Part shown: in pieces, positions 4,501-64,000 of the stretch
How positions within the stretch are numbered: position 1 is the stretch's first letter
Layout of the letters: the number at the start of each line of letters is the position of its first letter
Assembly: GCA_964549935.1 (NCBI GenBank)
Contig: CAZJVT010000003.1
Span: 78,634-142,633 of the forward strand
Origin: an uncultured Candidatus Saccharibacteria bacterium
Lineage (GTDB): Bacteria; Patescibacteriota; Minisyncoccia; UBA6257; 1-14-0-10-44-23
DNA length: 64,000 bases
Direction: 5' to 3'
Notes under the pieces: generated by a model
What the model was told of the DNA's origin: nothing
What the model saw: only the letters and a program-made list of their open reading frames with translations
Databases searched by the model: none
Program-made: the position numbers and the translations under genes

Positions 4501-4520
4501 TGCGAGAAGATCCTTCCCTG

Positions 4521-5900: not shown

Positions 5901-5919
5901 GATTAATACGAGACGCACC

Positions 5920-13597: not shown

Positions 13598-13598
13598 G

Positions 13599-13871
13599 AT
13601 GCCGGGCACCGGCATCACCATCGGCGGTATCCAGGCGTCCCGAGGCTCGGCGACCGTCTATTGCGGCAATCCGCTCTGCTACAGGTTTCGCCACGGCGCG
13701 ACCAGGAGCCTGAAGCTGGAAACCCTGCCGCCACAGGTCACGGTGGACGAGGTGAAGGTCAGACTTCGCTGCGATGCCTGCGACATGTTCCAGGCCGAGA
13801 TCGTGGTCGTGCTCGGATCGAAGGGGAGCGGCAAGATCGGCCAGGCGGAAATGCGAGGTCTTTTCCGCTGA
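13599..13871 (+). CDS. Small Cys-containing hypothetical protein
   Basis: 90 aa with YCGNPLCY and CDACD pairs. Immediately follows the previous gene. Confidence 0.4.
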   Translation: MPGTGITIGGIQASRGSATVYCGNPLCYRFRHGATRSLKLETLPPQVTVDEVKVRLRCDACDMFQAEIVVVLGSKGSGKIGQAEMRGLFR

Positions 13872-13872
13872 T

Positions 13873-14259
13873 CTAGTCGAGTTGCGGTCTACTACCCCAC
13901 CATCCCGCCAGCTGGCTAAGCACGTAGAAACCGGCGATGAAGACGATCAGGCCGATCAGGCCCTTCGCGTCGGCCCATATCTCCTGCCGGGTCATGGTCG
14001 GGGTCCGGCGAAGCCAGCTGATCAGGCCCCTGGCGCCCATGACATAGGCTGAACCGATCTGACCGAACGCGAAGGCCAGGGCCATGACCATGGCGATCGC
14101 CAGGCCGAGCCCGAAGATCATCCCCCAGTCCCAACCCAGGTAGATCAGGGCGCAGGCCGCCGCGGCGATCGCAACCAGGAGCGTGAACTCGCCATATCGC
14201 CTGACCAGGTAGTCAATGCGCTCGCCTGTTTTCATCGGGTCAGGTTGGTATCTCGCCAT
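13873..14259 (-). CDS. Integral membrane protein (3-4 predicted TM helices)
   Basis: Hydrophobic stretches LLVAIAAAACALIYLGW, MIFGLGLAIAMVMALAFAF and LIGLIVFIAGFYVL. Confidence 0.5.
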   Translation of the reverse strand: MARYQPDPMKTGERIDYLVRRYGEFTLLVAIAAAACALIYLGWDWGMIFGLGLAIAMVMALAFAFGQIGSAYVMGARGLISWLRRTPTMTRQEIWADAKGLIGLIVFIAGFYVLSQLAGWWGSRPQLD

Positions 14260-14372
14260 GGCTCGCGAACCAGATCATATTGCCTTCTCCGATGCGATCT
14301 CAAATCGCGGCGTGCCTGGATCCTGGGATTATGCAACTCTGATAAGTCATTTTTTTCAATGAATTAACCGAG

Positions 14373-14488
14373 TTATAGCGAGTTTATCTCAGTTTATGAT
14401 TTTTTCATAAACTTAGGTAACTTCCTTGAAATTAGGAAAGTAAGTATATATTATCAAAATCAGATAAACCGCCCTAAGGTCGCTATAA
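14373..14488. promoter_or_regulatory. AT-rich promoter with inverted repeat TTATAGCGA ... TCGCTATAA abutting the ATPase start codon
   Basis: TTATAGCGA at 14373..14381 and its exact reverse complement TCGCTATAA at 14480..14488. The ATG is at 14489. GTTTAT motifs are repeated in between. Confidence 0.4.
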
Positions 14489-15721
14489 ATGGACCCCAGA
14501 ACCAATCCCTATGCGCCCGGCGCCGGCTCCCAGCCGCCCGAGCTCGCGGGTCGTGACGAGATCCTGGAGAAGGCCGCGACCGCGCTCGACCGCATCAAGG
14601 CCGGCAAGCAGGCAAGGAGCCTGGTCCTCCACGGCCTTCGCGGGGTCGGCAAGACCGTGCTGCTCAACAAGATCCGGCGCGAGGCCGAGGCACGCGACAT
14701 CCAGAGCGTCGTCATCGAGGCGCCAGAGCATCGCTCCCTCCCCGGGATCCTGGTGCCGGCGCTGCGTGCCGTGCTGATCCGTCTCGATCGCGTCGAGGCC
14801 ACGAAGGCTATCTTCGGCAAGGCCAAGAAGGCGCTCGCCGGCCTGGCGAAGGCCGCGAAGGTGAAATACGAGGACGTCGAGTTCGGTCTCGACTTCGAGG
14901 TCGAGGACGGCCTGGCCGACTCCGGCGACCTCGAGCACGACCTGGGCGAGCTCTTCATGGCGGTCGGCGAGGCTGCCAAGGCGCGCAACACGGCGATCGT
15001 CCTCTACATCGACGAGGTGCAGTATGTGCCCGAGGAGCAACTGGCGGCCCTGATCTCCGCGCTGCATCGCGCGGCGCAGGAGATGCTGCCGGTGACCATG
15101 CTCGCCGCCGGCCTGCCGCAGATCCTGGGGCAGATGGGCAAGGCCAAGTCCTATGCCGAGCGTCTCTTCGAGTTCACCGAGATCGACAGCCTGGGCGCGG
15201 AGTCGGCGAAGAAGGCGCTCTGCAAGCCGGCGGAGGCCGAGAAAGTCACGTTCGAGCAGGGCGCGATCGACGAGATCCTCGAGCAGACCAAGGGGTATCC
15301 GTACTTCCTCCAGGAATGGGGCAAGCACAGCTGGAACATCGCGGCATCCTCGCCGATCACCGCGGCGAACGCGCGCGAGGCGACCAAGTCGGCGATCGCC
15401 GAGCTGGATGCGAGCTTCTTCAGCGTGCGCCTCGATCGCCTGGCGCCGGCGGAGAAGCTTTATCTCCGGGCCATGGCCGAGCTCGGGCCCGGACCGCACC
15501 GCTCGGGCGATATCGCCGCGAGCCTGGGCAAGCCGGTCAACCTCGTCGCACCTACGAGAAACAGCCTCATCGCCAAAGGTATGGTGTTCAGCAAGGCGCA
15601 TGGCGACACCGCCTTCACCGTGCCGCTCTTCGATGGCTTCATGAAGAGGGCCATGGTGTTCAAGCCCGAGGACGGACATAAGCGCAAGCGCGCGGCCGAG
15701 CCGAAGCCGCCGGGCATGTAG
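14489..15721 (+). CDS. AAA_16-type (Orc1/STAND-like) P-loop ATPase with C-terminal winged-helix-like region
   Basis: N-terminus NPYAPGAGSQPPELAGRDEIL then Walker A LHGLRGVGKTVLL. Walker B VLYIDEVQ. Confidence 0.65.
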   Translation: MDPRTNPYAPGAGSQPPELAGRDEILEKAATALDRIKAGKQARSLVLHGLRGVGKTVLLNKIRREAEARDIQSVVIEAPEHRSLPGILVPALRAVLIRLDRVEATKAIFGKAKKALAGLAKAAKVKYEDVEFGLDFEVEDGLADSGDLEHDLGELFMAVGEAAKARNTAIVLYIDEVQYVPEEQLAALISALHRAAQEMLPVTMLAAGLPQILGQMGKAKSYAERLFEFTEIDSLGAESAKKALCKPAEAEKVTFEQGAIDEILEQTKGYPYFLQEWGKHSWNIAASSPITAANAREATKSAIAELDASFFSVRLDRLAPAEKLYLRAMAELGPGPHRSGDIAASLGKPVNLVAPTRNSLIAKGMVFSKAHGDTAFTVPLFDGFMKRAMVFKPEDGHKRKRAAEPKPPGM

Positions 15722-17527: not shown

Positions 17528-18049
17528 CTAGCCGCCCATGGCCGGACCGATGTCGATTGTCTTCACCTCGCTCTCGATCGTCGCGCCGTGCTCCTTGAGC
17601 AGCCAGGCAGCTACAGCCGGAGCGACCACATCGCGAATGCTCCGCTTGTCGTCGTCACCTGAGGTGGCCACCTCGCCGGCTGCAAGCTCCAGACAGATCG
17701 CGAGAGCCTTCATCGGCGTCATCGTCCCACCATCTTCCGGGGTCGGCGCCGGCGAGTGCTCTATGTCCATGATCGAGGACGGATCGGAGCGGACGATCTC
17801 TACGAGGGCCGGCCCGAAGCGCTTGTCGAGCGCCTCGCCATGGTTGGTGACGAAATCGACGAGCGTTCTGATCGCCTCCTCCTGCCACTTCAGCTGGTCG
17901 ACCAGGCTGTCGTCGCCATGGTTGTCTTCCGGATCCATCTGGTTGCCCTGCGCGGCTTCGGCCACCGCCTCGAGAGCATCGGAGATCATCGTTCCGCTGT
18001 CGCTCGGCGGAAATCCGGCGGGGCGCCGCGGGGCCTCTTCGAGACTCAT
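17528..18049 (-). CDS. Hypothetical acidic protein, paralog 1 downstream of Fic
   Basis: Its start overlaps the Fic stop (ATGA). Paralogous to 16999..17523. Confidence 0.5.
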   Translation of the reverse strand: MSLEEAPRRPAGFPPSDSGTMISDALEAVAEAAQGNQMDPEDNHGDDSLVDQLKWQEEAIRTLVDFVTNHGEALDKRFGPALVEIVRSDPSSIMDIEHSPAPTPEDGGTMTPMKALAICLELAAGEVATSGDDDKRSIRDVVAPAVAAWLLKEHGATIESEVKTIDIGPAMGG

Positions 18050-19746
18050 GGTTCCAATCCCTTCTGTTTCCTGGAAGATGGATCTGCCGGCTCCGGCGTC
18101 TTGCCGCTGACCGGAATTCGGTGGTCCATCGCAACGGCGACTGCGCGCTCGGCCGCTGCGACCTGGGTGTCGTCGAGATCGGCGAACAGGCTCTTGCGCT
18201 TCTTCTTCGAGAGCGCTCCGCCGTTCTCGTGGATCAGCTTTGCGAGAAGCTCGGCATTATCCTTTGGCATGCCCGTCGCGCCGCGTACGCCGGCGACGGC
18301 GTCGTCGAATCCCTCGATGAAGGCGATCTCGTGGGGCAGGTCGCGCTCGACCGTCTGCTCGACGCACCGGTAGAGGAATTCGGTCTGCCGGGTGAGATCC
18401 ATGTAGCGGTAGTGACGGCCGCGGGCCTCGCCGCTTCCGGCGCCCTTGACCTTGAGGGCCCCGTCGTCGTCGAGCGACCATGACAGGCGATCCAGAAGCG
18501 GCCGCGAGAAGCCCTCGAGGGCGCGGTCGTAGCCATCCATGTCGCGAAGCATCGCCGCCGATACCGGGAGGATGCCGCCCTGGGGCGTATAGCCGGTCGA
18601 GGCCAGGGTCGAATGCACCAGGAAGCGGCTGGTCCGGCCGTTGCCGTCCTCGAAGGGGTGGATGTAGACGAGCCCGAACTTGAGCAGGGCGGCGACGACG
18701 ACCGGATCCGTGCCGGCGCCCGCCAGGCGATTGGCCTGCGCCACCAGGCCGCGCATCATGCCGCCGACCTGCGCCGGATCCGGGCTGATGTAGTCCACCA
18801 CCCCGCGGTTGCCGCCGCCGCTCCGCTTGAAGACGTAGTTCGACGTGTTGCGGTAGCCTGTCCTGCGATCGGTGCCGGCGAGAACCTCGGCGACGACGTT
18901 CTGGATCTCGTGCTCGGATAGCTGGGGCGCGCCGCCTCGTCGGCCCTGGGACCCGGCGGATCGCGCCAGCATCTGGACGAAGCGCCGCTCCTTTTCCGGA
19001 CTGGGCTTCTCCTGCTCGATCGCGAAGCTGTCCCTGGTCTCCTTGGCGAAGAGCCAGCCGGCGGCGCGGCGCGCGGTCTCTGGATCGGCTTCAGCGACGA
19101 TGCGGCGGGCACGGCCGGACAGGTCCAGGGCGCGCATCGACTCGATCTCGCCGGTGATCCACACCATCGGGCACCATTCGGGCGTGCCAGGCATGTTGTC
19201 GACGACATGGTGGCGGCGCGATCTCGTGCCCATCGCCGGCGCCACCTGCATCTTCACGTCGATCGCCGGGACGTAGAAGCCCTCGATCGCGCTGTCGGGC
19301 AGCTCGAGCTGGCGGCCGGTGAGCCATTCGGCGAGGAACCAGGCGCGCCTGGCATGCCGGCCGGTCGGTTCCGACCGCACCCAGTCGGCGACATGACGGC
19401 CGGCGAGATCGGAGGCTGGGGATGCCTGGAAGAGGTCGGCGAGGACAGCGAGGTTCACGCCTTCGTTGCGAAGGGCGAAGTCAAGGTGCCAGGCGAGGAA
19501 CCGCGGGTCCTCGCCGCCGCCGAGAGCGTCCGGCTTCGGTGCCTGGTGCGGACGATGGCGGATCCAGGTCCTGCCGCTGATCGGGTCCTCGATCTCGGCC
19601 TTCTTCCAGCTGTCGCCGGTCGAAGCGCAGCGCAGCGGCCGATCGACGATCGGGTCGAGGCCGTAGGCCGCGATCAGGGCCGCATAGCCGAGGGGGACGG
19701 TGCCGGTCGGGGATTCCATGACCATCGCAGGATCGTTATGGAGCAC
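18046..19746 (-). CDS. Fic/Doc-family protein (probable AMPylase) with a long N-terminal domain
   Basis: Canonical Fic motif HPFEDGNGRTSRFL. The start is uncertain (GTG at 19746, or ATG at 19722/19716). The antisense ORFs are Arg-rich. Confidence 0.75.
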   Translation of the reverse strand: MLHNDPAMVMESPTGTVPLGYAALIAAYGLDPIVDRPLRCASTGDSWKKAEIEDPISGRTWIRHRPHQAPKPDALGGGEDPRFLAWHLDFALRNEGVNLAVLADLFQASPASDLAGRHVADWVRSEPTGRHARRAWFLAEWLTGRQLELPDSAIEGFYVPAIDVKMQVAPAMGTRSRRHHVVDNMPGTPEWCPMVWITGEIESMRALDLSGRARRIVAEADPETARRAAGWLFAKETRDSFAIEQEKPSPEKERRFVQMLARSAGSQGRRGGAPQLSEHEIQNVVAEVLAGTDRRTGYRNTSNYVFKRSGGGNRGVVDYISPDPAQVGGMMRGLVAQANRLAGAGTDPVVVAALLKFGLVYIHPFEDGNGRTSRFLVHSTLASTGYTPQGGILPVSAAMLRDMDGYDRALEGFSRPLLDRLSWSLDDDGALKVKGAGSGEARGRHYRYMDLTRQTEFLYRCVEQTVERDLPHEIAFIEGFDDAVAGVRGATGMPKDNAELLAKLIHENGGALSKKKRKSLFADLDDTQVAAAERAVAVAMDHRIPVSGKTPEPADPSSRKQKGLEP

Positions 19747-47240: not shown

Positions 47241-47480
47241 ATGTGCCTTCGCTGCTCGCGCGGCGGCGAGATCGACGAGGACGATGTCGCCGAGGTCGGA
47301 TGGCTCGGTGCTCTCTCCGACTGGACCTTCGCGAGAATTCCGGCGGACATCTCCTTCGAAGGCGGCCGCCTGGAAATCACACGCTGGGAATTCGGCCTGG
47401 CGCTGAGGGCATCGGGAAGCCTTTCACCGTCCGCGCTCTCGCAGCCTCTCTCCAAGGCTCAGACGTCGCCGCTCTTCTAG
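47241..47480 (+). CDS. Small hypothetical protein (CxxC at N-terminus)
   Basis: 79 aa. Starts 1 nt after the upstream stop. Confidence 0.3.
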   Translation: MCLRCSRGGEIDEDDVAEVGWLGALSDWTFARIPADISFEGGRLEITRWEFGLALRASGSLSPSALSQPLSKAQTSPLF

Positions 47481-47629
47481 AGCCAGGCGGAAGCCAGGCG
47501 CACAAGTCGTTGCAACCACACGCTATTAGGCGATGAGTATCCAGCTACCTTGACAGGAATTTATCCCGTGACGCTTGATTGACGCCGCACTGTCTCTATC
47601 GGGGATGGGCGAAATTCACGGGGGAGAAC

Positions 47630-48613
47630 ATGCTCAGTAGCAAAAGACTGCCTTTGGTAGTGGTCATGGTCGCCCTGGCTGGGTGCCAGACCACGAAGAG
47701 CCAGATACCGGGCGACTATGTGATGCCCGGATACGTCATGGTCGAGCCGCCGAGGAACAACCTCAGCGTCTGGATGCCGGTCGACGAGAAGACTAGCCAG
47801 CCCGCCGCGCTCAACATCGGACATTGCTTCAAGCCGGCGATCGTGGGGCCGGCCAGCGACGAGAAGTTCGTCCTCAATGAGACCCGAACCCTCGGTGCCG
47901 GCGCTGCCTTCAAAGCCGGCATCAAGAACGTGGTCGACGTCGATGTCGGTGCGAATTTCACCGGGACCGCGGTCAGGAAAATCGAGAACGGAAGCATCGA
48001 AACCGGTGTCTCGGCCCAGATCGCGGACGATGCCGACTGCCAGACACTCGATCGCAACAAGCTCCAGAACATTTGGCTCGTGAAGTCGATGGTTCGCTAC
48101 GGCAAGGTGCATTACGAGCTCAAGGACGAGAAGGGCGCGCACCTGAATCTCAAGTCGGGAGAGATCCTCGACAAGTATTTCCCGAACAAGGCTACGCTCG
48201 AAGGCAAGGTCGGCGCCGACGGCAATCTTACGGTGGACACCAATAACGCGGTCTACCAGGTGATGCGGGTGAATGCGTTCGACTCCATCGTCGCGCAGAC
48301 GGTCACCTGCAAGACTTACAGGGTCTGCACGACAGCTTTCACCTGGGAGCCGTATAATTTCTGGATCCAGGATGGCGGCCTGGATAATCGCGGCGGGCGC
48401 GTGATCACGGTCAGCGTCTGGCCCAGCACCCCCAACAAGGAGGGTGCGTTCGATATCAGGATGCTCAACAACGAAACGAGCAAGATGTGGTTCGACGATG
48501 ACCAGGAGCGTCCGACGGAGGCCCGTGTCATCGCTCGCTTCGATTCCGGGGCCCAGGCAATCGAATCCGCGACCCTCACCTTCGCAATCGAGCGGCCCAA
48601 GCCCAAGAAGTAA
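47630..48613 (+). CDS. Lipoprotein (lipobox LAGC)
   Basis: MLSSKRLPLVVVMVALAGCQT has a signal peptide and lipobox. Asn/Lys/Val-rich mature part. A hairpin GGCCGGGcatcggtCCCGGCC lies downstream at about 48622..48655. Confidence 0.55.
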   Translation: MLSSKRLPLVVVMVALAGCQTTKSQIPGDYVMPGYVMVEPPRNNLSVWMPVDEKTSQPAALNIGHCFKPAIVGPASDEKFVLNETRTLGAGAAFKAGIKNVVDVDVGANFTGTAVRKIENGSIETGVSAQIADDADCQTLDRNKLQNIWLVKSMVRYGKVHYELKDEKGAHLNLKSGEILDKYFPNKATLEGKVGADGNLTVDTNNAVYQVMRVNAFDSIVAQTVTCKTYRVCTTAFTWEPYNFWIQDGGLDNRGGRVITVSVWPSTPNKEGAFDIRMLNNETSKMWFDDDQERPTEARVIARFDSGAQAIESATLTFAIERPKPKK

Positions 48614-48690
48614 GCGTCCTGGCGGCCGGGCATCGGTCCCGGCCGTCCCTTTCCTCTCGTCGATGCCGTTCAAATGAACGGTTTCCCTAG

Positions 48691-48720
48691 GTATTATCGT
48701 GAAGACACCTTATGATGTAG
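48691..48720 (+). promoter_or_regulatory. Conserved promoter/operator element, copy 2
   Basis: See 45678..45713. It precedes the 48766..51438 operon. Confidence 0.45.
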
Positions 48721-48765
48721 GTCTCGGGCCTGACCCCGCGCCAGGCTTCCGGCAGGACAGGATCG

Positions 48766-49026
48766 ATGAGCGGCACCGACGGTCTCGACAAAGCGAAGCT
48801 GAACACGGCCCGGCACGACCTCATCGTGCGTGTCGCGCAGATGCAGGAAGAGGCCGGTCGTCTCGGCCTTTTCAAGACCATGCACAGCCTCCATGAAGCC
48901 AATCGCGCCGGCGGCTTCGAGCTGGCTGAGATCCTCGAGAACGACCGCAAGGCCAAGCTGGCGGCGAAGAAGACGGCTTCTTCCGCCGCCACCCGATCTC
49001 GCGAGCGAGAGCCGGGGCTGTCATGA
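48766..49026 (+). CDS. Small hypothetical protein
   Basis: 86 aa, helical-looking. Overlaps the next ORF by 4 nt. Confidence 0.4.
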   Translation: MSGTDGLDKAKLNTARHDLIVRVAQMQEEAGRLGLFKTMHSLHEANRAGGFELAEILENDRKAKLAAKKTASSAATRSREREPGLS

Positions 49027-52557: not shown

Positions 52558-52857
52558 TCAGGCGTCGACGGGAATAAAGCCCCGGATCCTCGCTTCGGTG
52601 ATGCCCTCGCCCGTCGGTCGTCCCATGGGCTCGCCGATGCTTCGGTCGCGGTACTCCGCCCAGCCCAGCTTGACGCAGGCGTCGAAGCCCTTGACGCTTC
52701 CGCCGTCGAGCCAGAGACGATCGACCGAGCGCCCGTAGTAGTAGGGCCCGCCGGCGCAGAGCGCCTCGAGGGTCGGGAGCGCTTTCAGGACCCGGCGTTC
52801 GCGAATCCAGGTGCGGACCTTGTCGATCGCGCCGGTGATCGTCTTCAGGGGGCTCAT
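52558..52857 (-). CDS. Hypothetical protein
   Basis: 99-aa ORF. Its start overlaps the upstream stop. Confidence 0.35.
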   Translation of the reverse strand: MSPLKTITGAIDKVRTWIRERRVLKALPTLEALCAGGPYYYGRSVDRLWLDGGSVKGFDACVKLGWAEYRDRSIGEPMGRPTGEGITEARIRGFIPVDA

Positions 52858-53315
52858 CGCGACTTCTCCTTGATTTCGGTGTCCTTGATGACGGCCTCGA
52901 CCATCGCCGCGGCGATGACCGCGGACAGCAGCGCGCGCCGGCTGACGGTGACGTTGATCTTCGGGTCGTCCTCGCGCTTGAGCGTGACGAACCAGACGGG
53001 GACCATCCCCCGATCGCGCCGCCTGGTGCCGATATGGCTGAGATACCAGCCAGCAGGCAGCTGCCGGCGCAGACCCTCGACATTGGGCACCGTGGCGCAG
53101 GCCATCAGCTCGTAGGCCCTGGCCGGAGTCCTGACGGGGAGAAGCTTCATCGAGCGGATCGAGGCGACCGAGGCATCGGAGAACTTCCAGATCCTCGCCT
53201 GGATGGCCCTGAGGGCACGGACCCGGGCCGCGGTTCGGGAGGGCGTCTTCTTCTCGCTGCCGACGCGAATGCTCGGCTCTTTCGTCGCTTTGGCGCCCGA
53301 GATCTTCATTCTCAT
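52854..53315 (-). CDS. Hypothetical protein
   Basis: 153-aa ORF. The competing plus ORF 52450..53115 is Ser/Arg-rich. Confidence 0.4.
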   Translation of the reverse strand: MRMKISGAKATKEPSIRVGSEKKTPSRTAARVRALRAIQARIWKFSDASVASIRSMKLLPVRTPARAYELMACATVPNVEGLRRQLPAGWYLSHIGTRRRDRGMVPVWFVTLKREDDPKINVTVSRRALLSAVIAAAMVEAVIKDTEIKEKSR

Positions 53316-53319
53316 TCCC

Positions 53320-53634
53320 CTACTCGATGCGCCATGTAGCCGATGCTTTTAATTCGTCATCGGGTGCAGATCCTTCGCCTGGGCGGGTTTTCTCCCATGG
53401 AGGCTCCACCGTCCATTCGGTCCAGGCCGTCCGCCAGGTCACGTTGAAGAACCAGAAGCCGAAGCTTGGATGAGGGCCGTCGTAGTAGAACCAGTCGCGG
53501 CCCCAATAACGGTAGCCCTTATCCAGCCAATTAAAGGGGTAGAACCAGTACAGGTCGTAGTAGGAGCCGTCCTTGGTATTGCGTCCCAACCAGGTGACGC
53601 CGCCGTTCGACAGGTCGATCCGCCAGATTCTCAC
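53320..53634 (-). CDS. Small aromatic-rich (Trp/Tyr/Phe) protein
   Basis: 104 aa. The central 55 residues contain about 20 W/Y/F. No signal peptide. Confidence 0.4.
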   Translation of the reverse strand: MRIWRIDLSNGGVTWLGRNTKDGSYYDLYWFYPFNWLDKGYRYWGRDWFYYDGPHPSFGFWFFNVTWRTAWTEWTVEPPWEKTRPGEGSAPDDELKASATWRIE

Positions 53635-53739
53635 GACTGCGAGCGCCCTTCAGTTTCGGTCGCGGCATCTGTTGTCGCTTTCATATCACCATGATAGTAT
53701 GTATACGCGATTTATCCAAGGGGAAAGGGGCAGGGGCGG

Positions 53740-54312
53740 ATGTCGGGCGCCGAATTCATCACGCCGCCACGGCACATCTCGCAAAAGGTCGGCAAGGGCA
53801 TCGTCGGGTACGACGCCCATGTCACCAGGGCCGAGCGCGCCGTCAACGCCCAGATCGAGGCCACGGACTATCGCATCCTCGCGAAGCCCCATGTCGACGC
53901 GCTGCGCACGGCCCTCAAGGCCCTCCATGCGGACACCGCAGATACCCTGGCCTGGAAGACCCTCGTCGAGGTCGTTCACGATTTCCGCGGCGAGGCCGCC
54001 AGCTTCCGGCAGTTCGCCGTGGCCGAGGTCCTCATGTCGCTCAAGTCCCTGCTGACGCTCGACCGGCACGTCAACGCGCGCTTCATCCAGATCGCGTCGC
54101 TGATCGTCGACGGGATCTCCGCCATGATCGCGCAGGGCATCGGCAAGGATAAGAACGGTCCCGCGGCGCCGGTCGTGAAGGGCCTCGGCGACATCGCCAA
54201 CTCGATCATGCCCGCGTGGAAATACGGGCCGAGGATCCAGGTCACCTATGCCGGCAATGGGGTCGGGCACGCGGACAGCGGCAAGTCCTCGCTTTCCAAC
54301 GTCGCGGCCTGA
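53740..54312 (+). CDS. Hypothetical protein
   Basis: 190-aa ORF preceded by an AT-rich divergent promoter (53635..53739). Confidence 0.45.
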   Translation: MSGAEFITPPRHISQKVGKGIVGYDAHVTRAERAVNAQIEATDYRILAKPHVDALRTALKALHADTADTLAWKTLVEVVHDFRGEAASFRQFAVAEVLMSLKSLLTLDRHVNARFIQIASLIVDGISAMIAQGIGKDKNGPAAPVVKGLGDIANSIMPAWKYGPRIQVTYAGNGVGHADSGKSSLSNVAA

Positions 54313-54325
54313 AGGCAGAGACCCC

Positions 54326-55393
54326 ATGCGCCGGACACCTACCAATCCTCCCGTGCTGCTCACCCGCGACGCCTTCCGCGAAGGGGTATTCGCGCGCGAC
54401 GGCGGCTGCTGCGTCTTCTGCAAGGAGCCGGCGATCGACGCCCATCACATCGTCGAGCGGCGACTGTTTCCGGATGGCGGCTACTACCTCGAGAACGGGG
54501 CCTCGGTCTGCGAGAAGCATCATCTCGAATGCGAGATGACGACGATCTCGGTCGAGGAGGTTCGGCTCGCCGCCGGTATCCGGCGCATCGTGTTGCCGCC
54601 TCATCTCTACGACGACCAGCAGATCGACAAGTGGGGCAACCCGATCCTCGCCAACGGCACGCGGCTCAAGGGCGAGCTGTTCGAGGACGAGAGCGTCCGG
54701 AAGATCCTCGAGCGCGGCCGTGTCCTTCAGCTCTTCACCGATCTCGTGAAGTACCCGCGCACGCATCACCTGCCGTGGTCGCCGGGCGTCTCGGACGACG
54801 ATCGCGTCGTTCATGACCTGTCGCGGCTCAATGGCCGCCGCTGCGTCGCCGCGACCAAGATGGACGGCGAGAACACCTCGCTCTACCGCCACAAGATCCA
54901 TGCGCGCAGCGTCGACAGCCGCCATCACCGCTCGCGCGACTGGGTGAAGCAGTTCCACAGCACGATCGCCGGCGACATTCCCGAGGGCTGGCGCATCTGC
55001 GGCGAGAACCTCTATGCCGTCCATTCGATCCGGTACGAGGACCTCCCCAGCTACTTCATGGGCTTCTCGATCTGGGACGAGAAGAACCGCTGCCTGCCCT
55101 GGGACGAGACCCTCGACTGGTTCGGCCTCCTCGGCATCGAGCCGGTGCCGGTCATCTACGACGGCGTGTTCGACGAGGCCGCCCTGCGCGCTCTGTGGAA
55201 GCCCGCCGATGCCGTGCGCTGCGAAGGCTACGTGCTGCGGCCGGCCGACGGCTTCTCCTATGCCGAGTTCAAGGACCTGGTTTTGAAATTCGTCCGCCCC
55301 GGGCATGTGCAGACGGTCAAGCACTGGATGCACGGCCAGCAGATGGAAGTGAACGGTCTCAGGTCGAGGCCAAAACAGGAGATGACACCATGA
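54326..55393 (+). CDS. HNH endonuclease domain fused to an ATP-dependent RNA/DNA ligase (Rnl-like nucleotidyltransferase) domain
   Basis: ATG at 54326. HNH: CCVFCKEP...DAHHIVERRLFPDGGYYLENGASVCEKHH. Ligase motif I KMDGEN (KxDG), motif III-like RICGENLYAVHS, motif IV CEGYVLR, motif V KFVR. Confidence 0.55.
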   Translation: MRRTPTNPPVLLTRDAFREGVFARDGGCCVFCKEPAIDAHHIVERRLFPDGGYYLENGASVCEKHHLECEMTTISVEEVRLAAGIRRIVLPPHLYDDQQIDKWGNPILANGTRLKGELFEDESVRKILERGRVLQLFTDLVKYPRTHHLPWSPGVSDDDRVVHDLSRLNGRRCVAATKMDGENTSLYRHKIHARSVDSRHHRSRDWVKQFHSTIAGDIPEGWRICGENLYAVHSIRYEDLPSYFMGFSIWDEKNRCLPWDETLDWFGLLGIEPVPVIYDGVFDEAALRALWKPADAVRCEGYVLRPADGFSYAEFKDLVLKFVRPGHVQTVKHWMHGQQMEVNGLRSRPKQEMTP

Positions 55394-55593
55394 GCAGGAA
55401 TCGAGAGGGAATGCCAACGGTGCTGTGCCAGGCCCCGCAGTGCTTCAGGCCGAGCTCAGGTTACGCCGTCGAGGAGGGTCTCGGCGTCACGCATTGCGAC
55501 CGCCATGCGGAATGGGCGAAGGCCCGGGTCGCCGAGATCGTCAAGGAGCAGGCTTCGAAGGTCGAAGCGGGGAAAGGGGCGACCAATGGCTAG
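55391..55593 (+). CDS. Small hypothetical protein (Cys/His-containing)
   Basis: ATGA overlap with the ligase gene. 67 aa. Confidence 0.35.
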
Positions 55594-55834
55594 GACACGC
55601 ACGCCGGAGCCGCCGGTCGAGATCGGCATCCAGAAGACCACCGCGGTCGCCATCGCCATCTCCCAGGCAAAGCTCCAGGAGATCGTCTTCGACTGGCTGA
55701 ACCAGGGCCTGGTGAAGGACGGTAAGGCGCCGGCGCCGGCTTCGAAGGAGGCTGTCGAGGTGACCGGCAATGTCGGAGGCGACGAGCAGCTCGACGGGAT
55801 CTCGGTCCAGTACCGGATCCAAGAGAGCCTCTGA
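55588..55834 (+). CDS. Small hypothetical protein
   Basis: 82 aa. Overlaps neighbours on both sides. Confidence 0.35.
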
Positions 55835-56832
55835 TGCAGAGAGAGCGCGCCACCAGGATGCTCGAGCGCATCTGTCAGCAGATCGACAGCGGCGACACTC
55901 CGGTTTCCTTTCATGGTCTCTGGGTATTCGGCTCCTATGCACGCGGCGCCACATCTCCTGGCGACCTGGACATCGTCGTCCTCCATGGGTCAGCCGATCG
56001 AGCGCGGGCCCGGAAATGGAAGAGCGAGGCTCGGCAGAAGTCCCTCAACTACATCGACTATCTCTGCTACCCACAACGGAAGTTGCAAGCCCTGGTCGGT
56101 ACGACCTTGCGACGCCCTGGGGAATCTATCGATATCTTGACGGGAAAATCCTTCAAGGACATCGAGGATAGTTTCACGATTACCAAAAAGGACTGCACCT
56201 TTCTTTGGTCTCCATCCGATAGAGACTGGCGGACAAAGTTGGCTGGAATTCGCGTCGACACCGCCGCAAAGAGCTTCGAGCACGGCCTGTTCATGAAACC
56301 GAAAGCGGCTCGCTGCGACTGGGATTCGATGGAGCATCTGACGGAGATGCTGCGCCAGGAGGTGCTTGTCGTTTCGAAGATCGGGCTTGGCGACGTCGAG
56401 GCGCCTCCGACCCTAAGCGCCTGGCCGGAACATGTCCGGTCTTCTTTGGAGCTGGCGTCGAGGTACGCAGGAAAGAAACGGCGCGAATGCCTGCCTTTTG
56501 CCTTTCAATGGCTCATCGACCAGGGAGAAGCTGGAATCTACGACTTCGATAACGAAGTACGGTCGGATGACGGACAATTCAAAGTCCTCATCGGGAACCT
56601 GTATCCCTATTGGATCAGCAGAACCTTGTGCGACGATGAATATGTCAGCGCGCTTGCGCATATCCTGCATTTCAGACGTGGGACGCCGCGCGAAATCCTG
56701 GTGTTCAGGCGTGGACCGCGGTGGCGGGAGCGCACTGCGATCAGCCGCGCCCTCCAGGAGGGCTTCGTGAGCGTGCCGGCCGTCGCGGTGGTCGCGGTTC
56801 CGGAAGAGCCGGACCACAGGAAAGCTGCGTAG
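55834..56832 (+). CDS. Pol-beta-superfamily nucleotidyltransferase (GS...DxD), possible CD-NTase/SMODS-like
   Basis: N-terminus LWVFGSYARGATSPGDLDIVVLH = GS-x-RG ... DLD NTase signature. 332 aa. GC and codon usage are visibly lower than in neighbouring genes. Confidence 0.5.
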   Translation: MQRERATRMLERICQQIDSGDTPVSFHGLWVFGSYARGATSPGDLDIVVLHGSADRARARKWKSEARQKSLNYIDYLCYPQRKLQALVGTTLRRPGESIDILTGKSFKDIEDSFTITKKDCTFLWSPSDRDWRTKLAGIRVDTAAKSFEHGLFMKPKAARCDWDSMEHLTEMLRQEVLVVSKIGLGDVEAPPTLSAWPEHVRSSLELASRYAGKKRRECLPFAFQWLIDQGEAGIYDFDNEVRSDDGQFKVLIGNLYPYWISRTLCDDEYVSALAHILHFRRGTPREILVFRRGPRWRERTAISRALQEGFVSVPAVAVVAVPEEPDHRKAA

Positions 56833-56838
56833 CGCACA

Positions 56839-57170
56839 TGGGCTTCCAGTCTCGCTTCCGGTCCCGATCGTCATCGATCGGCGCGAAGGTCGCCTACGTC
56901 AAGAGCCAAGGCCAGACGCGCAACCATCATTGCCACTGGCTTGGCTGCGAGAAGCAGGTCCCGCCGGCGGTCTGGGGATGCAAGCCGCACTGGTACGCGC
57001 TGCCGCCGGAGATCCGGAACCGGATCTGGAATGCCTATCGGACCGGACAGGAGAAGGACATGCGACCGTCGCGCGAGTACGTCGCGGCTGCCCAGGAGGC
57101 GCAGGCGTGGATCGCCAGGAACCATCCAGCCAAGGCAGTCGAGATTCCGGCACAGATGACTCTCTTATGA
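56839..57170 (+). CDS. Small Cys/His-rich protein (putative zinc-binding)
   Basis: HHCHWLGCEKQVPPAVWGCKPHWY. Start 7 nt after the NTase stop. Confidence 0.4.
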
Positions 57171-57604
57171 GGTTCGAGCTCGACGACGGTGGCCGCTCGG
57201 CCGCCGGATACAAGGGCAGCGCCGGCGACTGCGTCTGCCGCTCGATCGCCATCGCTTCCGGCCGACCCTACGGCGAGATCTACCGGCGCCTCGCCGATGG
57301 CATGGGCGCGCAGCGCGCAGGGAGGTCGGGCAAGCGAGCGCGGTCGGCCAGGAATGGCATCGACGTTCGGCGGAAGTGGTTCAAGGCACTGATGGCAGAG
57401 CTCGGCTTTGCCTGGACCTCGACCATGTCGATCGGATCGGGATGCAAGGTTCACCTCCGCGAGGACGAGCTTCCTTCGGGTCGCCTGGTCGTCGCCGTGA
57501 GCGGTCACTACACGGCGGTCGTGGACGGCACGATCCGGGACACTCACGATCCTCAGCGAGAGGGATCGAGATGCGTCTACGGATACTGGAAGATGAGCGA
57601 CTAG
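57169..57604 (+). CDS. Hypothetical protein
   Basis: ATGA overlap with the previous gene. 145 aa. Confidence 0.4.
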
Positions 57605-57664: not shown

Positions 57665-59191
57665 TCAGTCCTGCCCCTTGATCATGTTGTGCAGGCCCTC
57701 GACCTTCGCCGACGGATCCTTCACGGTCAGCAGGAGGGCGTAGGCAGGCTTGAGACCTTGCGATCTTGTCATGTCTCCGGCGATGGAGGCGATCGCCGCA
57801 TCACGTCGCGAACTGTTCCCGATGGCGTCTGCGTACTTGATCGCCTCGGCGACCTGCCCCGCCTTCGACAGGGCTCTCGCGATCGCGGCTTGAGTGAAAT
57901 GGCGCGTGATGTCGAGCGAGATGAGCTTGATCATCTCGGTAGCCTTGTCCATCTGCCCTTTCGATGCGCGCCCGACGGCGATGGCCTCGATGACCCTTTC
58001 CTTCCTGAACTTGTCAGGGATCGATGTCGTCAAGGAGAAGGCGTCGTCGAGGAGGCTCCGAGAGATCTCGGCGGGTGCCTCCTGCCAGGAAGCAATGAAG
58101 ATCAGCATATTTGCCCGTTCCTCCGGGCCCTGGATTTCGCGAGCAAGCGCGACAGCCTCATCGAAACGCTTCGCCCTGGTCAGCTGCCTGACAGCATTCT
58201 CAAGGCTCCTGATGCGCTTGGAGTCATCCTCGATCATGCGCATCGCCGAAATCGCGCCGGCGAACGCTTCCTGTCCGCCGGGAAGCTCCAGCCTCGTCTC
58301 GACGACCCCGATCATAGCCAGGGCGGTTGATCTTTCTGAAGGGTCGACCAGGGATTCAGTGGCGCGGCGGGCTTGACCGACGAGAGCAAGAGCTTGCTGG
58401 CGACGGCCATTCTTCCGGTCGTCATCGGCGATGAAAAGGAGAGCGAAGACTCTGTAGTCGACGTTGTCGAATGTCTCGGAAACCTGGAGAGCGGCATCTC
58501 GCCTTCCGTGTTTCGTCAACGCCACCACGGCATAGAACCTGGCGTCTCGCGCCTGGCCCTTGTCGGCGATCGCCTCCACCTCCTGCAGGACCTCGCGTAC
58601 CTGACCGAGCGCGATCTGGGCTCGCATCCGGGAGGCGTTCACGATGGTTTTCTCGTATCCTTTCTCTGCCCTCCCCGCCATGTCCCTGATCTGATCGATG
58701 GTTTCCAAGGCGCCGGTCCGATCGCGCGATCTGGCTTGCACCTCCGCGACGGTCCTCATCGTCTCCGCCCTCGACATCAGCGAATCTTGCTTATGCGCCA
58801 ACGCCAGGATCTGAACGGCGATGCAGACCTCGTTCGGGTTCTCGATGCATTTCGGCTCTTCCTTCCGAGCTCGCTCGGTCCGGATCGCCACGATCGTCTT
58901 TGAGATTTCCTCGTCGATCGCCTTGAGCCAGAAGGTTCCGATCGGCTGGCCCGAGATCAGCTGGACGGCGAGATTGGATGCCGGATATTCCTCGACGATC
59001 CTGTCCGCGAGACTGCGTGCCTGCCTCAGGTTCTTGAGCCTGTCCTCGCTGTTGGCGGAGGCCGGTTCCTGGAGCAGCTTCTGCGCCTGCACGAAAAGGC
59101 GGTTGGCGGCAGCGTTCGGATCCTGGGCGGCGCTCGGCCACGGCAGGCTCCAGGCCAACATGATGGAGATCAGGATGCCGACGATGCGCAT
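57665..59191 (-). CDS. Exported TPR/helical-repeat protein (signal peptide), low-GC gene
   Basis: MRIVGILISIMLAWSLPWPSAAQ is signal-peptide-like. Ala/Leu/Arg-rich helical repeats. Lower GC than flanks. Confidence 0.55.
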   Translation of the reverse strand: MRIVGILISIMLAWSLPWPSAAQDPNAAANRLFVQAQKLLQEPASANSEDRLKNLRQARSLADRIVEEYPASNLAVQLISGQPIGTFWLKAIDEEISKTIVAIRTERARKEEPKCIENPNEVCIAVQILALAHKQDSLMSRAETMRTVAEVQARSRDRTGALETIDQIRDMAGRAEKGYEKTIVNASRMRAQIALGQVREVLQEVEAIADKGQARDARFYAVVALTKHGRRDAALQVSETFDNVDYRVFALLFIADDDRKNGRRQQALALVGQARRATESLVDPSERSTALAMIGVVETRLELPGGQEAFAGAISAMRMIEDDSKRIRSLENAVRQLTRAKRFDEAVALAREIQGPEERANMLIFIASWQEAPAEISRSLLDDAFSLTTSIPDKFRKERVIEAIAVGRASKGQMDKATEMIKLISLDITRHFTQAAIARALSKAGQVAEAIKYADAIGNSSRRDAAIASIAGDMTRSQGLKPAYALLLTVKDPSAKVEGLHNMIKGQD

Positions 59192-59289
59192 GGGTGGTCG
59201 CCCCGATTTTTCGCCATCTTAGCGAGTTTTCGGAGCCACTTCTCCAACTTGCCTCTCGGAGCTTTCTCCGCCAGCTGATACCTTCCACT

Positions 59290-60690
59290 ATGGCGTTCTC
59301 GCCCGAAACGATCGAGCGCGTCAGGCTCGCAAATCCCCTGGCCGACGTGGTCGGCGAGCGCGTGGATCTGCGCCGGCGCGGCGGCAGCCTCTCCGCCAGC
59401 TGCATGTTCCACGAGGAGAGGACGCCGTCTTTCCATATCTTCGAGGACGACCGCGGCGGCCATTTCCACTGCTTCGGATGCGGCTGCCATGGCGACGTCC
59501 TCGACTTCGCCCAAAGGCATCTCGGCCTCGGCTTCAGCGAGAGCGTGCGCTTCCTAGCGGAGCGCGCCGGCATCGAGATCGCCGAGGATGCCCATGCCGT
59601 GGACCGCCAGCGGCTTTCATCCCAGGTCTACGAAGTCATGGACTACGCTTTCCGGCTGGCCCAGGCGACGTTGGCGTCGCTGGCCGGACGGGATCCGGAT
59701 CATCCGGCCATGGTCAGCCTTGCACGCCTCGGCCTCGACGCCGAGGCGATCGGTATCGCCGGCCTCGGCTTCATCCCTGAGGGCACCGCCCTCACGCAAC
59801 GGCTGGTCCAGGACGGAGTGACCCGACAGCTCCTCGAGGAAGCGGGCTTCATCGGGTCCGGCGAGGACAGCCTCGGAGGCCGGATTGTCCATCCTGTCCG
59901 AGACCGGCTAGATCGCGTCGTCGCCCTGATCGGCCAGCCGATCGATCTCGCGTCCGGAGATGCGGCGCTGGTGCATCATCGAAACGCGGGCCGGCTCCCG
60001 GCGATCGTCCACTACGGCAGCCGGCGCAACAGGATGCGAACGAGTCCATTGCCCGACGAAGGCGACTTTGCTCGCCGGGCTGCCGGCATGGACGGGCGCC
60101 CGGCCGGGATCGTGGTCCCCGACTTTCTCGCTGCCTCCATCCTCGCCGGACACGGCTTTGCCGACGTCATGGCGCCGACCTCCGGCCTTCTCCTGCCGGA
60201 CGCGATCGCCGCCGCCTGGCGCATCACCGACGAGCCCGTGCTGGTCGTCCCAGACGACGAGGTGGGGAACGCGTTCATGCGATCGTCGATCGAGGGGATC
60301 CTTCCCCTGGTTGGCCCCGGGCGCTCTTTCCGCTTTCTCCGGGTCCAGCCGGCCGCCTTCCCCGGCGGTCCTGCCTTCGATCCGGAGGTCATGCGGCTGA
60401 GGATCCTCGGAATGGCGGAGAACCTGGTCGACGTCGTCTGGGATCTCGAGGTTCCAGGCCCTCCTCCTGGGAAGTCGGCGTCCTCCTGGGATGCGATCCA
60501 TGGCCGCTCCCAGTCTCCGGTGGCCCTGGACCGCCTTATCCGCCGCGTTCGCGGGATCCATCACGAGGAAGTCAGGTCCTTCTACGCGCTCGACTATGCG
60601 GGAAGATCCCGGATCCAGCTGGGCATCGACCCGAGGTGGCCGGAGGCGGATCCGGTCCGCGTGCTGGCGCTGGACCTGGCGCCGGCCTGA
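59290..60690 (+). CDS. Second CHC2 zinc-finger primase-like protein
   Basis: Start at ATG 59290 (MAFSPETIERV...). CHC2 signature CMFHEERTPSFHIFEDDRGGHFHCFGCGCHG. The C-terminal domain is divergent. Confidence 0.6.
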   Translation: MAFSPETIERVRLANPLADVVGERVDLRRRGGSLSASCMFHEERTPSFHIFEDDRGGHFHCFGCGCHGDVLDFAQRHLGLGFSESVRFLAERAGIEIAEDAHAVDRQRLSSQVYEVMDYAFRLAQATLASLAGRDPDHPAMVSLARLGLDAEAIGIAGLGFIPEGTALTQRLVQDGVTRQLLEEAGFIGSGEDSLGGRIVHPVRDRLDRVVALIGQPIDLASGDAALVHHRNAGRLPAIVHYGSRRNRMRTSPLPDEGDFARRAAGMDGRPAGIVVPDFLAASILAGHGFADVMAPTSGLLLPDAIAAAWRITDEPVLVVPDDEVGNAFMRSSIEGILPLVGPGRSFRFLRVQPAAFPGGPAFDPEVMRLRILGMAENLVDVVWDLEVPGPPPGKSASSWDAIHGRSQSPVALDRLIRRVRGIHHEEVRSFYALDYAGRSRIQLGIDPRWPEADPVRVLALDLAPA

Positions 60691-61172: not shown

Positions 61173-61438
61173 CCGGCGAGGTCAGACCCCTCTACTCGCT
61201 CTGGATCACCTTCCGCTCCAACGAGCACCCGTTTCAGACCGATTACGATCCCTATCCTAAGAACAAGTTCGCCTCCGACGAGGAAGCATTCGCCTGGTGC
61301 CGTGGGATGCGCGAGGGCATGGGACCCGACTACGACATCTCGCTGAGGAAGAACGGGCAGCCTATCGAGGTGCCCCAGCTGCCTGAGCCGGCCGCCTCGG
61401 AAGGCGTCGACGTTCCATCCCCAGGCCCGACTCCATGA
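61169..61438 (+). CDS. Small hypothetical protein
   Basis: 89 aa with ATGA overlaps. Confidence 0.4.
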   Translation: MTGEVRPLYSLWITFRSNEHPFQTDYDPYPKNKFASDEEAFAWCRGMREGMGPDYDISLRKNGQPIEVPQLPEPAASEGVDVPSPGPTP

Positions 61439-62067
61439 ACGATCCCGTGAAGCTTCTCCCCTGCCCGTTCTGCGGGGGCCAGGCGTCGATGGACGAGCTC
61501 GATGGCCGCCGCGGAACGTCCCGGCAAAGCTGCATCGTCACATGCCTCGACTGCGGCGCCAGCCACGAGAGCTCTGACGAGGGCGACCGATGCGGCACGT
61601 CCTGGAACCGGAGGGCATCACCGTCGCCGGCTGATTTTCCGGACATCTCGGCCGAGATCGACAAGTTCGCCCACTCCTTGGACGAGGCGGCGAAGCTGCT
61701 CGACATCCGTCGTCCGGTCGGCGGAAGCACGACCATCCGCGACATGCTGGCCGATGCCGGCGCCGTCGTCCGCCAGCTGCACGAACGCCTCGTCGTCCAG
61801 CACTCTTCCGCACCGCCGCCGCCCAACCCCTGGCCAAGCCGACCGCCAGAGTTCAATCGCTGGTATGCGGAGGCGCCGCGCTTCCTGGCATACGTCCAGC
61901 GGCATCCCGAGGCGTGGTGCCGCGACGGCAGGCTGAAATACCTGAACGTCCGGGTCGACACCCGATCGAGCCACTTCCGGGTCTTCGCGGACCCGGAGCA
62001 TGGCGGCGGCGAGATCTCGCCCGACGAGTTCGTCGCCGCGTCGCAAAAGGGCCGCGCCGCGGTGTGA
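61435..62067 (+). CDS. Lar-family restriction-alleviation-like protein (N-terminal zinc ribbon) with C-terminal extension
   Basis: LLPCPFCGG...CIVTCLDCGA...GTSWNRR matches the Lar-family pattern PCPFCG...C..CGA...WNRR. Confidence 0.55.
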   Translation: MNDPVKLLPCPFCGGQASMDELDGRRGTSRQSCIVTCLDCGASHESSDEGDRCGTSWNRRASPSPADFPDISAEIDKFAHSLDEAAKLLDIRRPVGGSTTIRDMLADAGAVVRQLHERLVVQHSSAPPPPNPWPSRPPEFNRWYAEAPRFLAYVQRHPEAWCRDGRLKYLNVRVDTRSSHFRVFADPEHGGGEISPDEFVAASQKGRAAV

Positions 62068-62130
62068 GCTTTCGCTTCACGCTGCTATAATCCCTTCCGC
62101 CATCTGCTATAGGCGAACGGAAGCCGATTC

Positions 62131-64000
62131 GATGCCCGTCCTGGCGCTGCCCAAATCGTTCTTCGTCCGCGAGCGCAACGATGTGTATGGGCGATGGCAC
62201 ATCGCTTTCTGGCGCGAGCTCGTCTCCAACTCGATCGACGCCGGTGCTTCCCGCATCCAGATCCGGACTTCGTACGGAACGATCCCCGGCGGCGACGGCA
62301 CCGAGGTCTTCGAGGTCACCTTCGCCGACAACGGCTGCGGGATGAACCGCGAGACGCTCGAGGACGTCTACTTCAAGCTCGGGGCCTCGACCAAGGGCGA
62401 GGGATCCAGCGGCGTCGGCGGCTTCGGTCGTGCCCGCATCCTCACCTGTTTCAGCCATGTCGCCTACTATATCCGCACGCTCGACTGCGAGGTCACCGGC
62501 GATGGGGCGGAATATTCGCTGACCAGCGGTCTTCCTCGCCAGCCGGGCTGCACCGTCGTCGTCGGCATCGATCGCAAGGAAGCAGAGAGGCTCGAGGAGG
62601 GGCTCAGGAAGTTCCTGCAGGAATGCCAGCTCGACTGCGAACTCGAGATCAACGGCGAGCGCTACCAGGGCTGGGGCTACAAGGGCCGCGTCAGCCGGCA
62701 GCTCGTCGACGAGGCCGGCAACCCATTCGCCAACGTCCATGTCAGCTATGGCGAGAAGGCCAGGAACAAGGGCCGTCTGATCGTCCGCGTCAACGGCGTC
62801 TCGATGTTCACGCCCTGGGTGCGGGACCTTGACGCTCAGGTCATCGTCGAGGTCTCGCCCGAGAGGTCGCGTGCCATCCTGACCGGCAGCCGCGACAATT
62901 TCCGCTCTCCCTATTCCGACATCCTCGACCGGTTCACCCAGGAGCTCGCCTCGGACCGCTCCAAGATGCTTCGGGTGCATGACGAGGTCTCTGTCCAGGT
63001 CTATCGCGGCGCCGGCATTGCCGCGGCGACGCCAGGATCCTACGCCGGCATCAGATCGGGATCGACCAGGGAGAGCACCGGTCTCTGGGCTCCGGCTCCC
63101 GCCGGCTCCGTCGGCGCGTCCGAGAGCGCGGGCGGCATCAGCCCGATCAGGTTGCCGGCGGACTTGCCCGACATGGTGGTCCGCATCGCCAGCCCGAATG
63201 CGGCTTCGAAGCGATCCCTCGTCAGGTTCCTGCCCGAGAACTGGACTAGGGCTTCCGGCGAAGGATCGTCTGCCCGCATCCTCTATGCCATGTGGGTGGC
63301 TGCCTGCGAGCATGCGATCGCGGCTCTGCTCAGGGTGCGCCCCGGGCTCGGGGAGGTGCGCTACATGCCCGGCTTCTATTTCGACACGCCGGAGGACGGC
63401 GCCAGCTACACGCGCGGCCTCCATTCGACGGTCGCGATCCCCGGAGAGCTCGACAGGCGGACGCACGCGATCCTCCTGAACCCGCTCGACGACAAGGGCC
63501 GGCTCCTCTACTCGGCGACGTCGAAGTCCGATCGCAAGACGCTGATCGCGGTCGCCAAGCACGAGGCCGCGCATGTGGTCGAGGAGTCCCACGACCAGGA
63601 CTTCGCTTCCCTGCTGACCTTCATCGACGCGGCCTTCGACGAGCGCCTGGCCTTCCAGCGCATGGACGAGCTCGCCTCCCGGATGCGCTCGGCCTTCGGC
63701 AGGAAGGCGCTGGTGCAGCAGGTGACGCAGGCTCAGCGGGCAGCGCCCCAGCCGCCGGCAGAGACAGGCATCCAGCGGCCCTGGGAACGACGCCTCGCCG
63801 CCGATCACCCGATGACGATGTCCATGGCCGGGCTTTCGACGCCGCCGATCGGAAGAACCGGATCACCCGCGCCCATCGGCCCGGTCGCCGCCGCGGTCGC
63901 GACCTCCGTCGCCGATACAGGACGTGCCGGCGTGGTCGCCGTGGACGCCACGCTGGTCAGCGATCTCGAGCGGCTCTTCGCAGAAGGTGCCGAGAGCGCC
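62131..64000 (+). CDS. GHKL (Bergerat-fold) ATPase-domain protein, MORC/Hsp90-like; 3' end beyond the window
   Basis: ATG at 62131. N box ELVSNSIDAGASRI, G1 FADNGCGM, G2 GVGGFGRA. No stop before the window end. The antisense 651-aa ORF is Arg/Gly-rich. Confidence 0.55.

Follow-up and report, generated by a model that had tools for sequence, protein, structure and literature searches.

Among the known systems closest to the locus described here is T4-type tRNA repair, in which Rnl1 or Rnl2 acts with a polynucleotide kinase-phosphatase (PNK) against anticodon nucleases. HNH-Rnl fusions have also been described, by Iyer et al. (2021, PMC7824862), who placed them in the Rnl2 family; a passage of that paper credits the HNH-Rnl2 fusion to Burroughs and Aravind (2016). 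Iyer et al. suggested DNA as the HNH target and reported that RNA ligases supplement the tRNAs of jumbo phages, and the association of Pol-beta nucleotidyltransferases (NTases) with RNA ligases is an established theme. RlaP, a Pol-beta NTase encoded near an RNA ligase, for which Burroughs and Aravind (2016) is likewise the primary source, adds one or two nucleoside monophosphates to an RNA 3'-OH and has a helical C-terminal domain (PMC12776372), and a precedent for a tRNA-cleaving HNH protein is PtuB (PMC12409363). Here we analysed a stretch of 64,000 nucleotides (hereafter the window; contig CAZJVT010000003.1, positions 78,634 to 142,633, from assembly GCA_964549935.1 of an uncultured Candidatus Saccharibacteria bacterium) in which an HNH-RNA ligase fusion and a Pol-beta NTase are encoded in the same cluster of seven genes. 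We consider it likely that this cluster is cargo, an operon of phage-type genes carried by a mobile-element-like island, and not a dedicated multi-component system.

The fusion gene (54326-55393, plus strand) encodes a protein of 355 amino acids whose residues 11-340 match positions 3-336 of the 342-position phrog_24030 "RNA ligase" profile (E=5e-131), so that both domains are covered end to end. Residues 173-323 (54842-55294) form an ATP-dependent RNA ligase nucleotidyltransferase domain with motifs I to V and match Pfam RNA_ligase (PF09414) over positions 3-171 of 171 (E=2.2e-30, 106.5 bits against a cut-off of 27). The sequences K178-M-D-G-E-N (motif I), E300-G-Y-V (IV) and K321-F-V-R (V) are all present, and in an alignment of 26 homologues with 46-83% identity, five phage or plasmid proteins among them, K178, D180, G181 and E182 (I), E227 and N228 (III), E300 and G301 (IV), K321 (V), V323 and R324 are invariant. 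The HNH domain, of the beta-beta-alpha-Me, zinc-finger type, occupies residues 14-70 (54365-54535). Over residues 14-68 it can be aligned to HNH domains from IscB structures (E about 1e-4), several PHROG HNH profiles match the N-terminus of the fusion (E=2.6e-6), and the signature residues C29, C32, H41, N57, C62 and H66, as well as C69, are invariant in the same 26 homologues, with H40 conserved in at least 90%. A preliminary description of this DNA, made from the sequence alone, had proposed an N-terminal HNH nuclease fused to an Rnl-like ligase and had named the motif I lysine and the HNH histidines as the residues to be checked; profiles and motifs confirm the fusion far beyond chance, and K178, H41 and H66 are invariant. 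The fusion is thus real, its active sites are intact and, judged by its residues, it looks active.

The segment between the two domains (residues 71-172, 54536-54841) is as conserved as the catalytic domains themselves. It contains an invariant D101-K-W-G-N105, numerous aromatic and basic positions in it are invariant as well, and it is not covered by any match in Pfam, NCBIfam or the Protein Data Bank (PDB). A profile search of the PDB with the ligase returned only a Naegleria Rnl5-type ligase, weakly (E about 0.6-0.9), and T4 Rnl2 was not among the matches.

The fusion belongs to a large family. Full-length homologues with 47-62% identity are encoded by Ralstonia phage RsoM2USA, Caulobacter jumbo phages, Salicola phage SCTP-2 and Acinetobacter phage ME3, while the homologue of Halogranum tailed virus 1 is more distant (31% identity); altogether, a full-length match is present in 17 phage records. 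Among 5.8 billion proteins searched there were more than 6250 relatives, and the best 120 are all 63-83% identical to the query and span 94-100% of its length. IMG/VR holds at least 195 matches, with the fusion architecture constant in the best 80. The preliminary description had called the fusion unusual, a view that does not hold for a protein with its own PHROG (phrog_24030), thousands of relatives and an earlier description (PMC7824862). Like the HNH-fused Rnl2-family ligases of phages, the window protein has the two-domain architecture at full length with all catalytic residues conserved, and it is 58-62% identical to those of RsoM2USA, the Caulobacter jumbo phages and SCTP-2. It differs from them in residing on a plasmid-like island, or one resembling an integrative and conjugative element (ICE), with no tRNA genes in 64 kb, and is otherwise undistinguished: it is an ordinary, intact member of a large known family of HNH-RNA ligases of phages and plasmids.

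The history of the NTase gene (55834-56832, plus strand) is different. Its GC content is 58.7% (70.6% at third codon positions, GC3), as against 64-66% (GC3 79-91%) in its neighbours, and just 3.7% of 1-kb windows are lower. The closest related locus, on a 3.7-kb metagenome contig (L095) with a ligase 82% identical to that of the window, carries the genes g190, ligase, g67, g82, g110 and g145 in this order and has no NTase. Window positions 52654-55834 and 56877-57321 are collinear with positions 34-3233 and 3291-3735 of L095 at 76-80% nucleotide identity, and the sole break in collinearity is a segment of 1043 bp that includes the NTase in the window as opposed to 58 bp in L095. The junctions fall precisely in the interval from the stop codon of g82 to the start codon of g110, reading CTCTGA-gaccggcgc-ATG(g110) in L095 and CTCTGA-TG[NTase ORF]TAG-cgcac-ATG(g110) in the window (ORF, open reading frame). 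The NTase is a late or recent single-gene insertion with both junctions defined. Recent acquisition had been proposed from its low GC content; the difference in GC is confirmed, though moderate, and the acquisition is demonstrated by the related locus that lacks the gene.

Beyond this close relative, the genes of the operon do not travel together. The 15 loci with NTase homologues contain neither a ligase relative nor any other gene of the operon, and across 14 of them the only neighbours in common are those of closely related pairs. Conversely, no other operon gene accompanies the ligase at any of 80 viral loci (L099-L178, the best IMG/VR matches), in five phage or plasmid records or on three metagenome contigs more distant than L095 (L096-L098), and an NTase homologue is absent beside the ligase at the 80 viral, five phage or plasmid and four metagenome-contig loci. 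A megablast search with 12 kb around the operon matched only the ligase gene of one Variovorax plasmid and no phage. As only a close relative has the block from g190 to g145 (leaving aside the NTase) in common with the window, descent alone can explain it. We conclude that the operon genes do not form a conserved module and, since the fusion family was already described and the NTase was inserted separately, that the locus does not amount to a novel system of several genes. What looks like a "system" arose through the accident of a gene insertion. As a finding on the window it is of little importance.

The NTase has 332 amino acids, comprising a core (residues 1 to about 126) that resembles minimal nucleotidyltransferases (MNTs) and an alpha/beta C-terminal domain, and its catalytic signature, G33-S34...D44-L-D46 plus D100, is fully intact. 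A Pfam scan with the single sequence gave only sub-threshold Pol-beta matches and a word-indexed search found three relatives only, while a HMMER profile search of 1.84 billion representatives retrieved 618, of which 73 had E<1e-30. PF01909 is matched by 38 of 43 aligned family members, the other families matched being PF22014, PF18765, PF14792, PF23378 and PF22600. An AlphaFold2 model computed with the family alignment (predicted local distance difference test score, pLDDT, 91.3; predicted template modelling score, pTM, 0.80) shows an N-terminal NTase core and a mixed alpha/beta domain of ~180 residues. By signature and fold the protein is a member of the Pol-beta nucleotidyltransferase superfamily, and together with the coupling of the genes this bears out the proposal of a GS...DxD Pol-beta NTase in the ligase operon.

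The further suggestion of a CD-NTase/SMODS-like enzyme does not hold. Like the window NTase, the CD-NTases and SMODS of the cyclic-oligonucleotide-based antiphage signalling system (CBASS) belong to the Pol-beta superfamily and are of similar length, and the preliminary description had considered a nucleotide-signalling module with a nuclease effector. In a CBASS-type form of this reading, a messenger made by the NTase would switch on the HNH nuclease of the fusion. It draws only on the size of the NTase, on its GS...DxD motif and on the nuclease domain in the same operon. Against it, neither the NTase nor the families matched by its 43 relatives include a CD-NTase/SMODS or PADLOC CBASS profile match, the NTase core groups structurally with minimal and aminoglycoside NTases, and no linkage to an effector is conserved, the ligase being present at 0 of 15 NTase loci. 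The structural grouping is the very outcome that the description itself had named as counting against its proposal, and we regard a CBASS-type defence as effectively refuted and hardly credible here. A CD-NTase fold was not the best structural match, and the comparison of the NTase with PADLOC gave nothing significant. The MntA/HepT type VII toxin-antitoxin system was also rejected: NF047752 scored 15.5 bits against a cut-off of 60, and the flanking g82 and g110 have no HEPN match in Pfam. Unlike MNTs (PDB 2rff, MntA antitoxins) and aminoglycoside NTases (KNTase/ANT(4')), the window NTase has an extra domain of ~180 residues.

This C-terminal domain has no informative match among curated profiles or solved structures, and a Foldseek search of a viral structure library returned nothing at E<=0.001. 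Aromatic and basic residues are conserved in it and a nuclease-type triad is absent. The window protein departs from the family at several otherwise conserved C-terminal positions (residues 143-158 and 275-286), where DPxAGRxxR is replaced by DTAAKSFEH and CLIPH by AHILH. A second clade of the family, with 410-450 amino acids (P0099-P0148), has the core GSxARGAxxCGDLDL and the C-terminal domain in common with the window NTase and is extended further at its C-terminus. Full-length genomic homologues come almost entirely from metagenome-assembled genomes of Planctomycetota, 2.9 million viral contigs contain essentially no member of the family, and a tblastn search of the NTase against phages gave no match. 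What emerges is a family of ~600 representative sequences with a C-terminal domain that curated profiles and solved structures do not illuminate.

These data also bear on the alternative that the operon is a true RNA-repair module in which the NTase, resembling RlaP without being homologous to it, was recently recruited in this lineage and restores one or two nucleotides to damaged 3' ends of RNA, which the ligase then seals. The NTase adjoins the genes of the ligase operon and is translationally coupled to them, the association of Pol-beta NTases with RNA ligases has the precedent cited above (PMC7824862), the catalytic residues are intact, and the conserved basic and aromatic residues of the C-terminal domain would fit nucleic-acid binding. 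The likeness to RlaP extends to its being encoded near an RNA ligase and to an N-terminal core followed by a C-terminal domain. However, PF10127, the RlaP family, is matched neither by the NTase (E<=0.1) nor by any of the 43 members (E<=0.01), and the C-terminal domain is predicted by the model to be alpha/beta, whereas that of RlaP is helical. The linkage to a ligase is not conserved either: L095 has the same operon without the NTase, no ligase occurs at the 15 NTase loci and no NTase at the 80 viral, five phage or plasmid and four metagenome ligase loci. The near absence of the family from viral contigs and the loss of several family-conserved C-terminal residues in the window protein point the same way, and we judge recruitment of the NTase into RNA repair to be improbable. 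A cargo operon into which an NTase was separately inserted remains the reading that we prefer; the inserted gene belongs to a Planctomycetota-centred family that has no conserved partner.

For the ligase on its own, RNA repair, which the preliminary description had raised as countering anticodon nucleases, is a sensible reading, and the association of its family with tRNA arrays speaks for it. On plasmid 3 of Variovorax RA8 a ligase homologue is embedded in an array of 23 tRNAs, on a Rep3/ParAB contig of Paucibacter soli another lies inside an array of 33, and a Methylobacillus contig that also carries conjugation genes (IcmW, TraW-like) has four tRNAs ~2-3.5 kb upstream of the ligase, with RF-1 and HD genes nearby. 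Among the 80 viral loci, a set without a matched control, 34 have tRNA genes within 10 kb of the ligase, at least five of them in 26 cases, and 398 of 410 tRNAs are on the same strand as the ligase. The relatives in or near arrays are found at L010 (6247-10189), L192 (4662-11229) and L191 (6596-8154) and at 34 viral loci within L099-L178. No tRNA lies within 5-10 kb of the ligase in the four isolate phages checked. Because the ligase family often adjoins tRNA arrays, a role in sealing tRNA or other RNA is supported at the level of the family. Abundant, conserved and frequently situated in mobile tRNA arrays, the HNH-Rnl family is a good candidate for studying how mobile elements counter tRNA-targeting defences.

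Plasmid-like contigs also carry an RF-1-domain (ArfB-like) gene and HD_4 (RelA/SpoT-type HD) genes near the ligase (L191 13546-14918; L192 1754-2311), in agreement with the ribosome-rescue genes published for tRNA array units.

By its invariant motifs, the ligase domain would act in the standard manner, with Lys178 adenylylated by ATP, the AMP passed to an RNA 5'-phosphate and the break sealed by attack of the 3'-OH, and the HNH domain is predicted to be a metal-dependent nuclease. No end-healing enzyme (PNK, phosphatase or 2H/HD) was detected among the scanned ORFs near the operon, so that the fusion could seal only breaks with 3'-OH and 5'-phosphate ends unless these are prepared by enzymes of the host or by the HNH domain. 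With relatives in tRNA arrays and no end-healing enzyme found, the most likely role would be the sealing of broken tRNA or other RNA with such ends during conflicts between element and host. The resemblance to T4-type repair lies in an ATP-dependent RNA ligase of a mobile element and a tRNA-associated family; in contrast, T4 Rnl has no counterpart of the N-terminal HNH domain, and the window operon has no detected PNK or phosphatase.

Several observations weigh against this picture of a cargo operon with an RNA-sealing enzyme. The searchable literature yielded no biochemical study of any HNH-Rnl fusion, and substrate and role are therefore inferred. The density of tRNAs at the 80 viral loci has no peak at the ligase, and their enrichment there stands without a matched control. 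The window itself has no tRNA genes, so the association with arrays does not extend to this locus. Translational coupling ties the NTase into the operon, and co-expression and some functional cooperation in this lineage are possible. No relaxase, type IV secretion system or integrase was identified in the ORFs scanned, which leaves the assignment of the window to a plasmid or ICE indirect. Finally, the association with arrays could reflect homing of selfish HNH genes instead of repair (PMC5966550).

This last point leads to the alternative that the HNH-ligase is mainly a selfish gene of the homing-endonuclease type, whose HNH domain cuts DNA at cognate sites such as tRNA arrays, the link to arrays then being a preference for homing sites. 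In tRNA array units no coding sequences are more widespread than HNH homing endonuclease genes (PMC5966550), and such genes are conserved beside the long tRNA arrays (L-arrays) of cyanobacteria, to which HNH and RtcB have been linked (PMC8421152). The distribution of the fusion is patchy, yet phages and plasmids whose hosts differ greatly carry copies with identities of 55-70%. In the Variovorax and Paucibacter arrays the ligase is followed, just downstream, by a second HNH gene that stands alone. On the other hand, purifying selection acts strongly on both domains and on the linker, and the motifs of the ligase do not vary, which would not be expected of the ligase if only the nuclease mattered; moreover, the fusion is constant across the best 80 viral matches and no tRNA array lies near the window ligase. 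We consider homing as the main function of the gene unlikely.

A more speculative extension of the RNA-sealing role is that the two domains act on the same RNA, making the fusion a self-contained cut-and-seal enzyme in which the HNH domain would cut or trim tRNA, pre-tRNA or damaged ends so as to leave the 3'-OH and 5'-phosphate ends required by the fused ligase, with the inserted NTase possibly co-opted to restore trimmed nucleotides. Such an enzyme would explain the absent healing enzymes, the invariant active sites and linker, the embedding in tRNA arrays and the spread as a single gene; we nevertheless consider the idea very unlikely.

The seven genes of the cluster, from g190 to g145, are all on the plus strand and tightly packed, and g145 converges with a minus-strand gene of 508 amino acids (57665-59191). 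The gene boundaries from our own reading of the ORFs equal those of independent gene calls on identical metagenome contigs. From the ligase to g145, each gene overlaps the next by 1-8 nt or is 5 nt away from it, the NTase overlapping g82 by 1 nt, and because of these overlaps and gaps of at most 5 nt it is reasonable to read the genes from ligase to g145 as one translationally coupled operon. PADLOC and NCBIfam scans of all seven proteins gave nothing significant. The first gene, g190 (53740-54312), encodes a hypothetical protein of 190 amino acids with a GC3 of 0.91 and 77% amino acid identity to its counterpart in the syntenic L095; g67 (55390-55593), whose start overlaps the ligase stop by 4 nt, encodes a small Cys/His-containing hypothetical protein 64% identical in L095; and g82 (55586-55834) encodes a small hypothetical protein 73% identical there. 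These three lack a significant family match in Pfam, PHROG, NCBIfam and PADLOC scans.

The two genes that follow the NTase, in contrast, have phage relatives. The product of g110 (56838-57170, plus strand) is a small zinc-binding protein (H-x-C-H...C...C-x2-H) that matches phrog_18063 (E=3e-32), and its residues H30, C32, H33, C37, C48 and H51 are invariant across phage homologues, which upholds the earlier reading of a Cys/His zinc-finger-like protein. Its homologues occur in the early regions of temperate and other, unrelated phages (VarioGold, DrLupo, Carli) with no ligase adjoining. The last gene, g145 (57167-57604, plus strand), encodes a phage-type hypothetical protein that matches phrog_3754 (E=1.6e-11), with homologues 47-54% identical in the large phages Tunturi_5, Mx1 and Phosso; a PDB sequence search with it found nothing. 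Both are independent phage-type small proteins. Homologues of g145 with 54-63% identity were also found in five IMG/VR contigs; the protein carries no annotation of structure or family.

The surroundings of the operon are in keeping with mobile DNA. The window encodes a UvrD helicase, a 1691-amino-acid Sno-like helicase and topoisomerase III, as well as two DnaG-type CHC2 zinc-finger primase-like genes (1-1749, minus strand; 59194-60690, plus strand), an 820-amino-acid protein with a YqaJ-like domain (2960-5422, minus strand), a helicase with six HA (helicase-associated) repeats (7482-10265, plus strand), a STAND-type AAA ATPase (STAND NTPase; 14489-15721, plus strand) and a Fic-domain protein (18046-19746, minus strand). 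The best matches of the topoisomerase are on alphaproteobacterial plasmids, and most plasmid matches overall are typed as conjugative. The window is probably a mobile-element-like island, from an alphaproteobacterial plasmid or ICE. A scan of positions 50-60 kb of the window against Rfam found no RNA family, and scanning for promoters and terminators gave no informative signal.

Downstream of the primase lie genes for a Lar restriction-alleviation protein and a GHKL/HATPase_c_3 protein (61435-62067 and 62000-64000), followed on the longer source contig by a TIR-domain gene (L001 20254-20999); together, the Lar, GHKL and TIR genes suggest a region of anti-defence or defence cargo. Elsewhere in the window, other patches with a GC content below 60% in 1-kb windows, against a background of 65%, are located at 4701-6500, 8601-10700, 13501-14900 and 47301-48900 and may mark further inserted genes.

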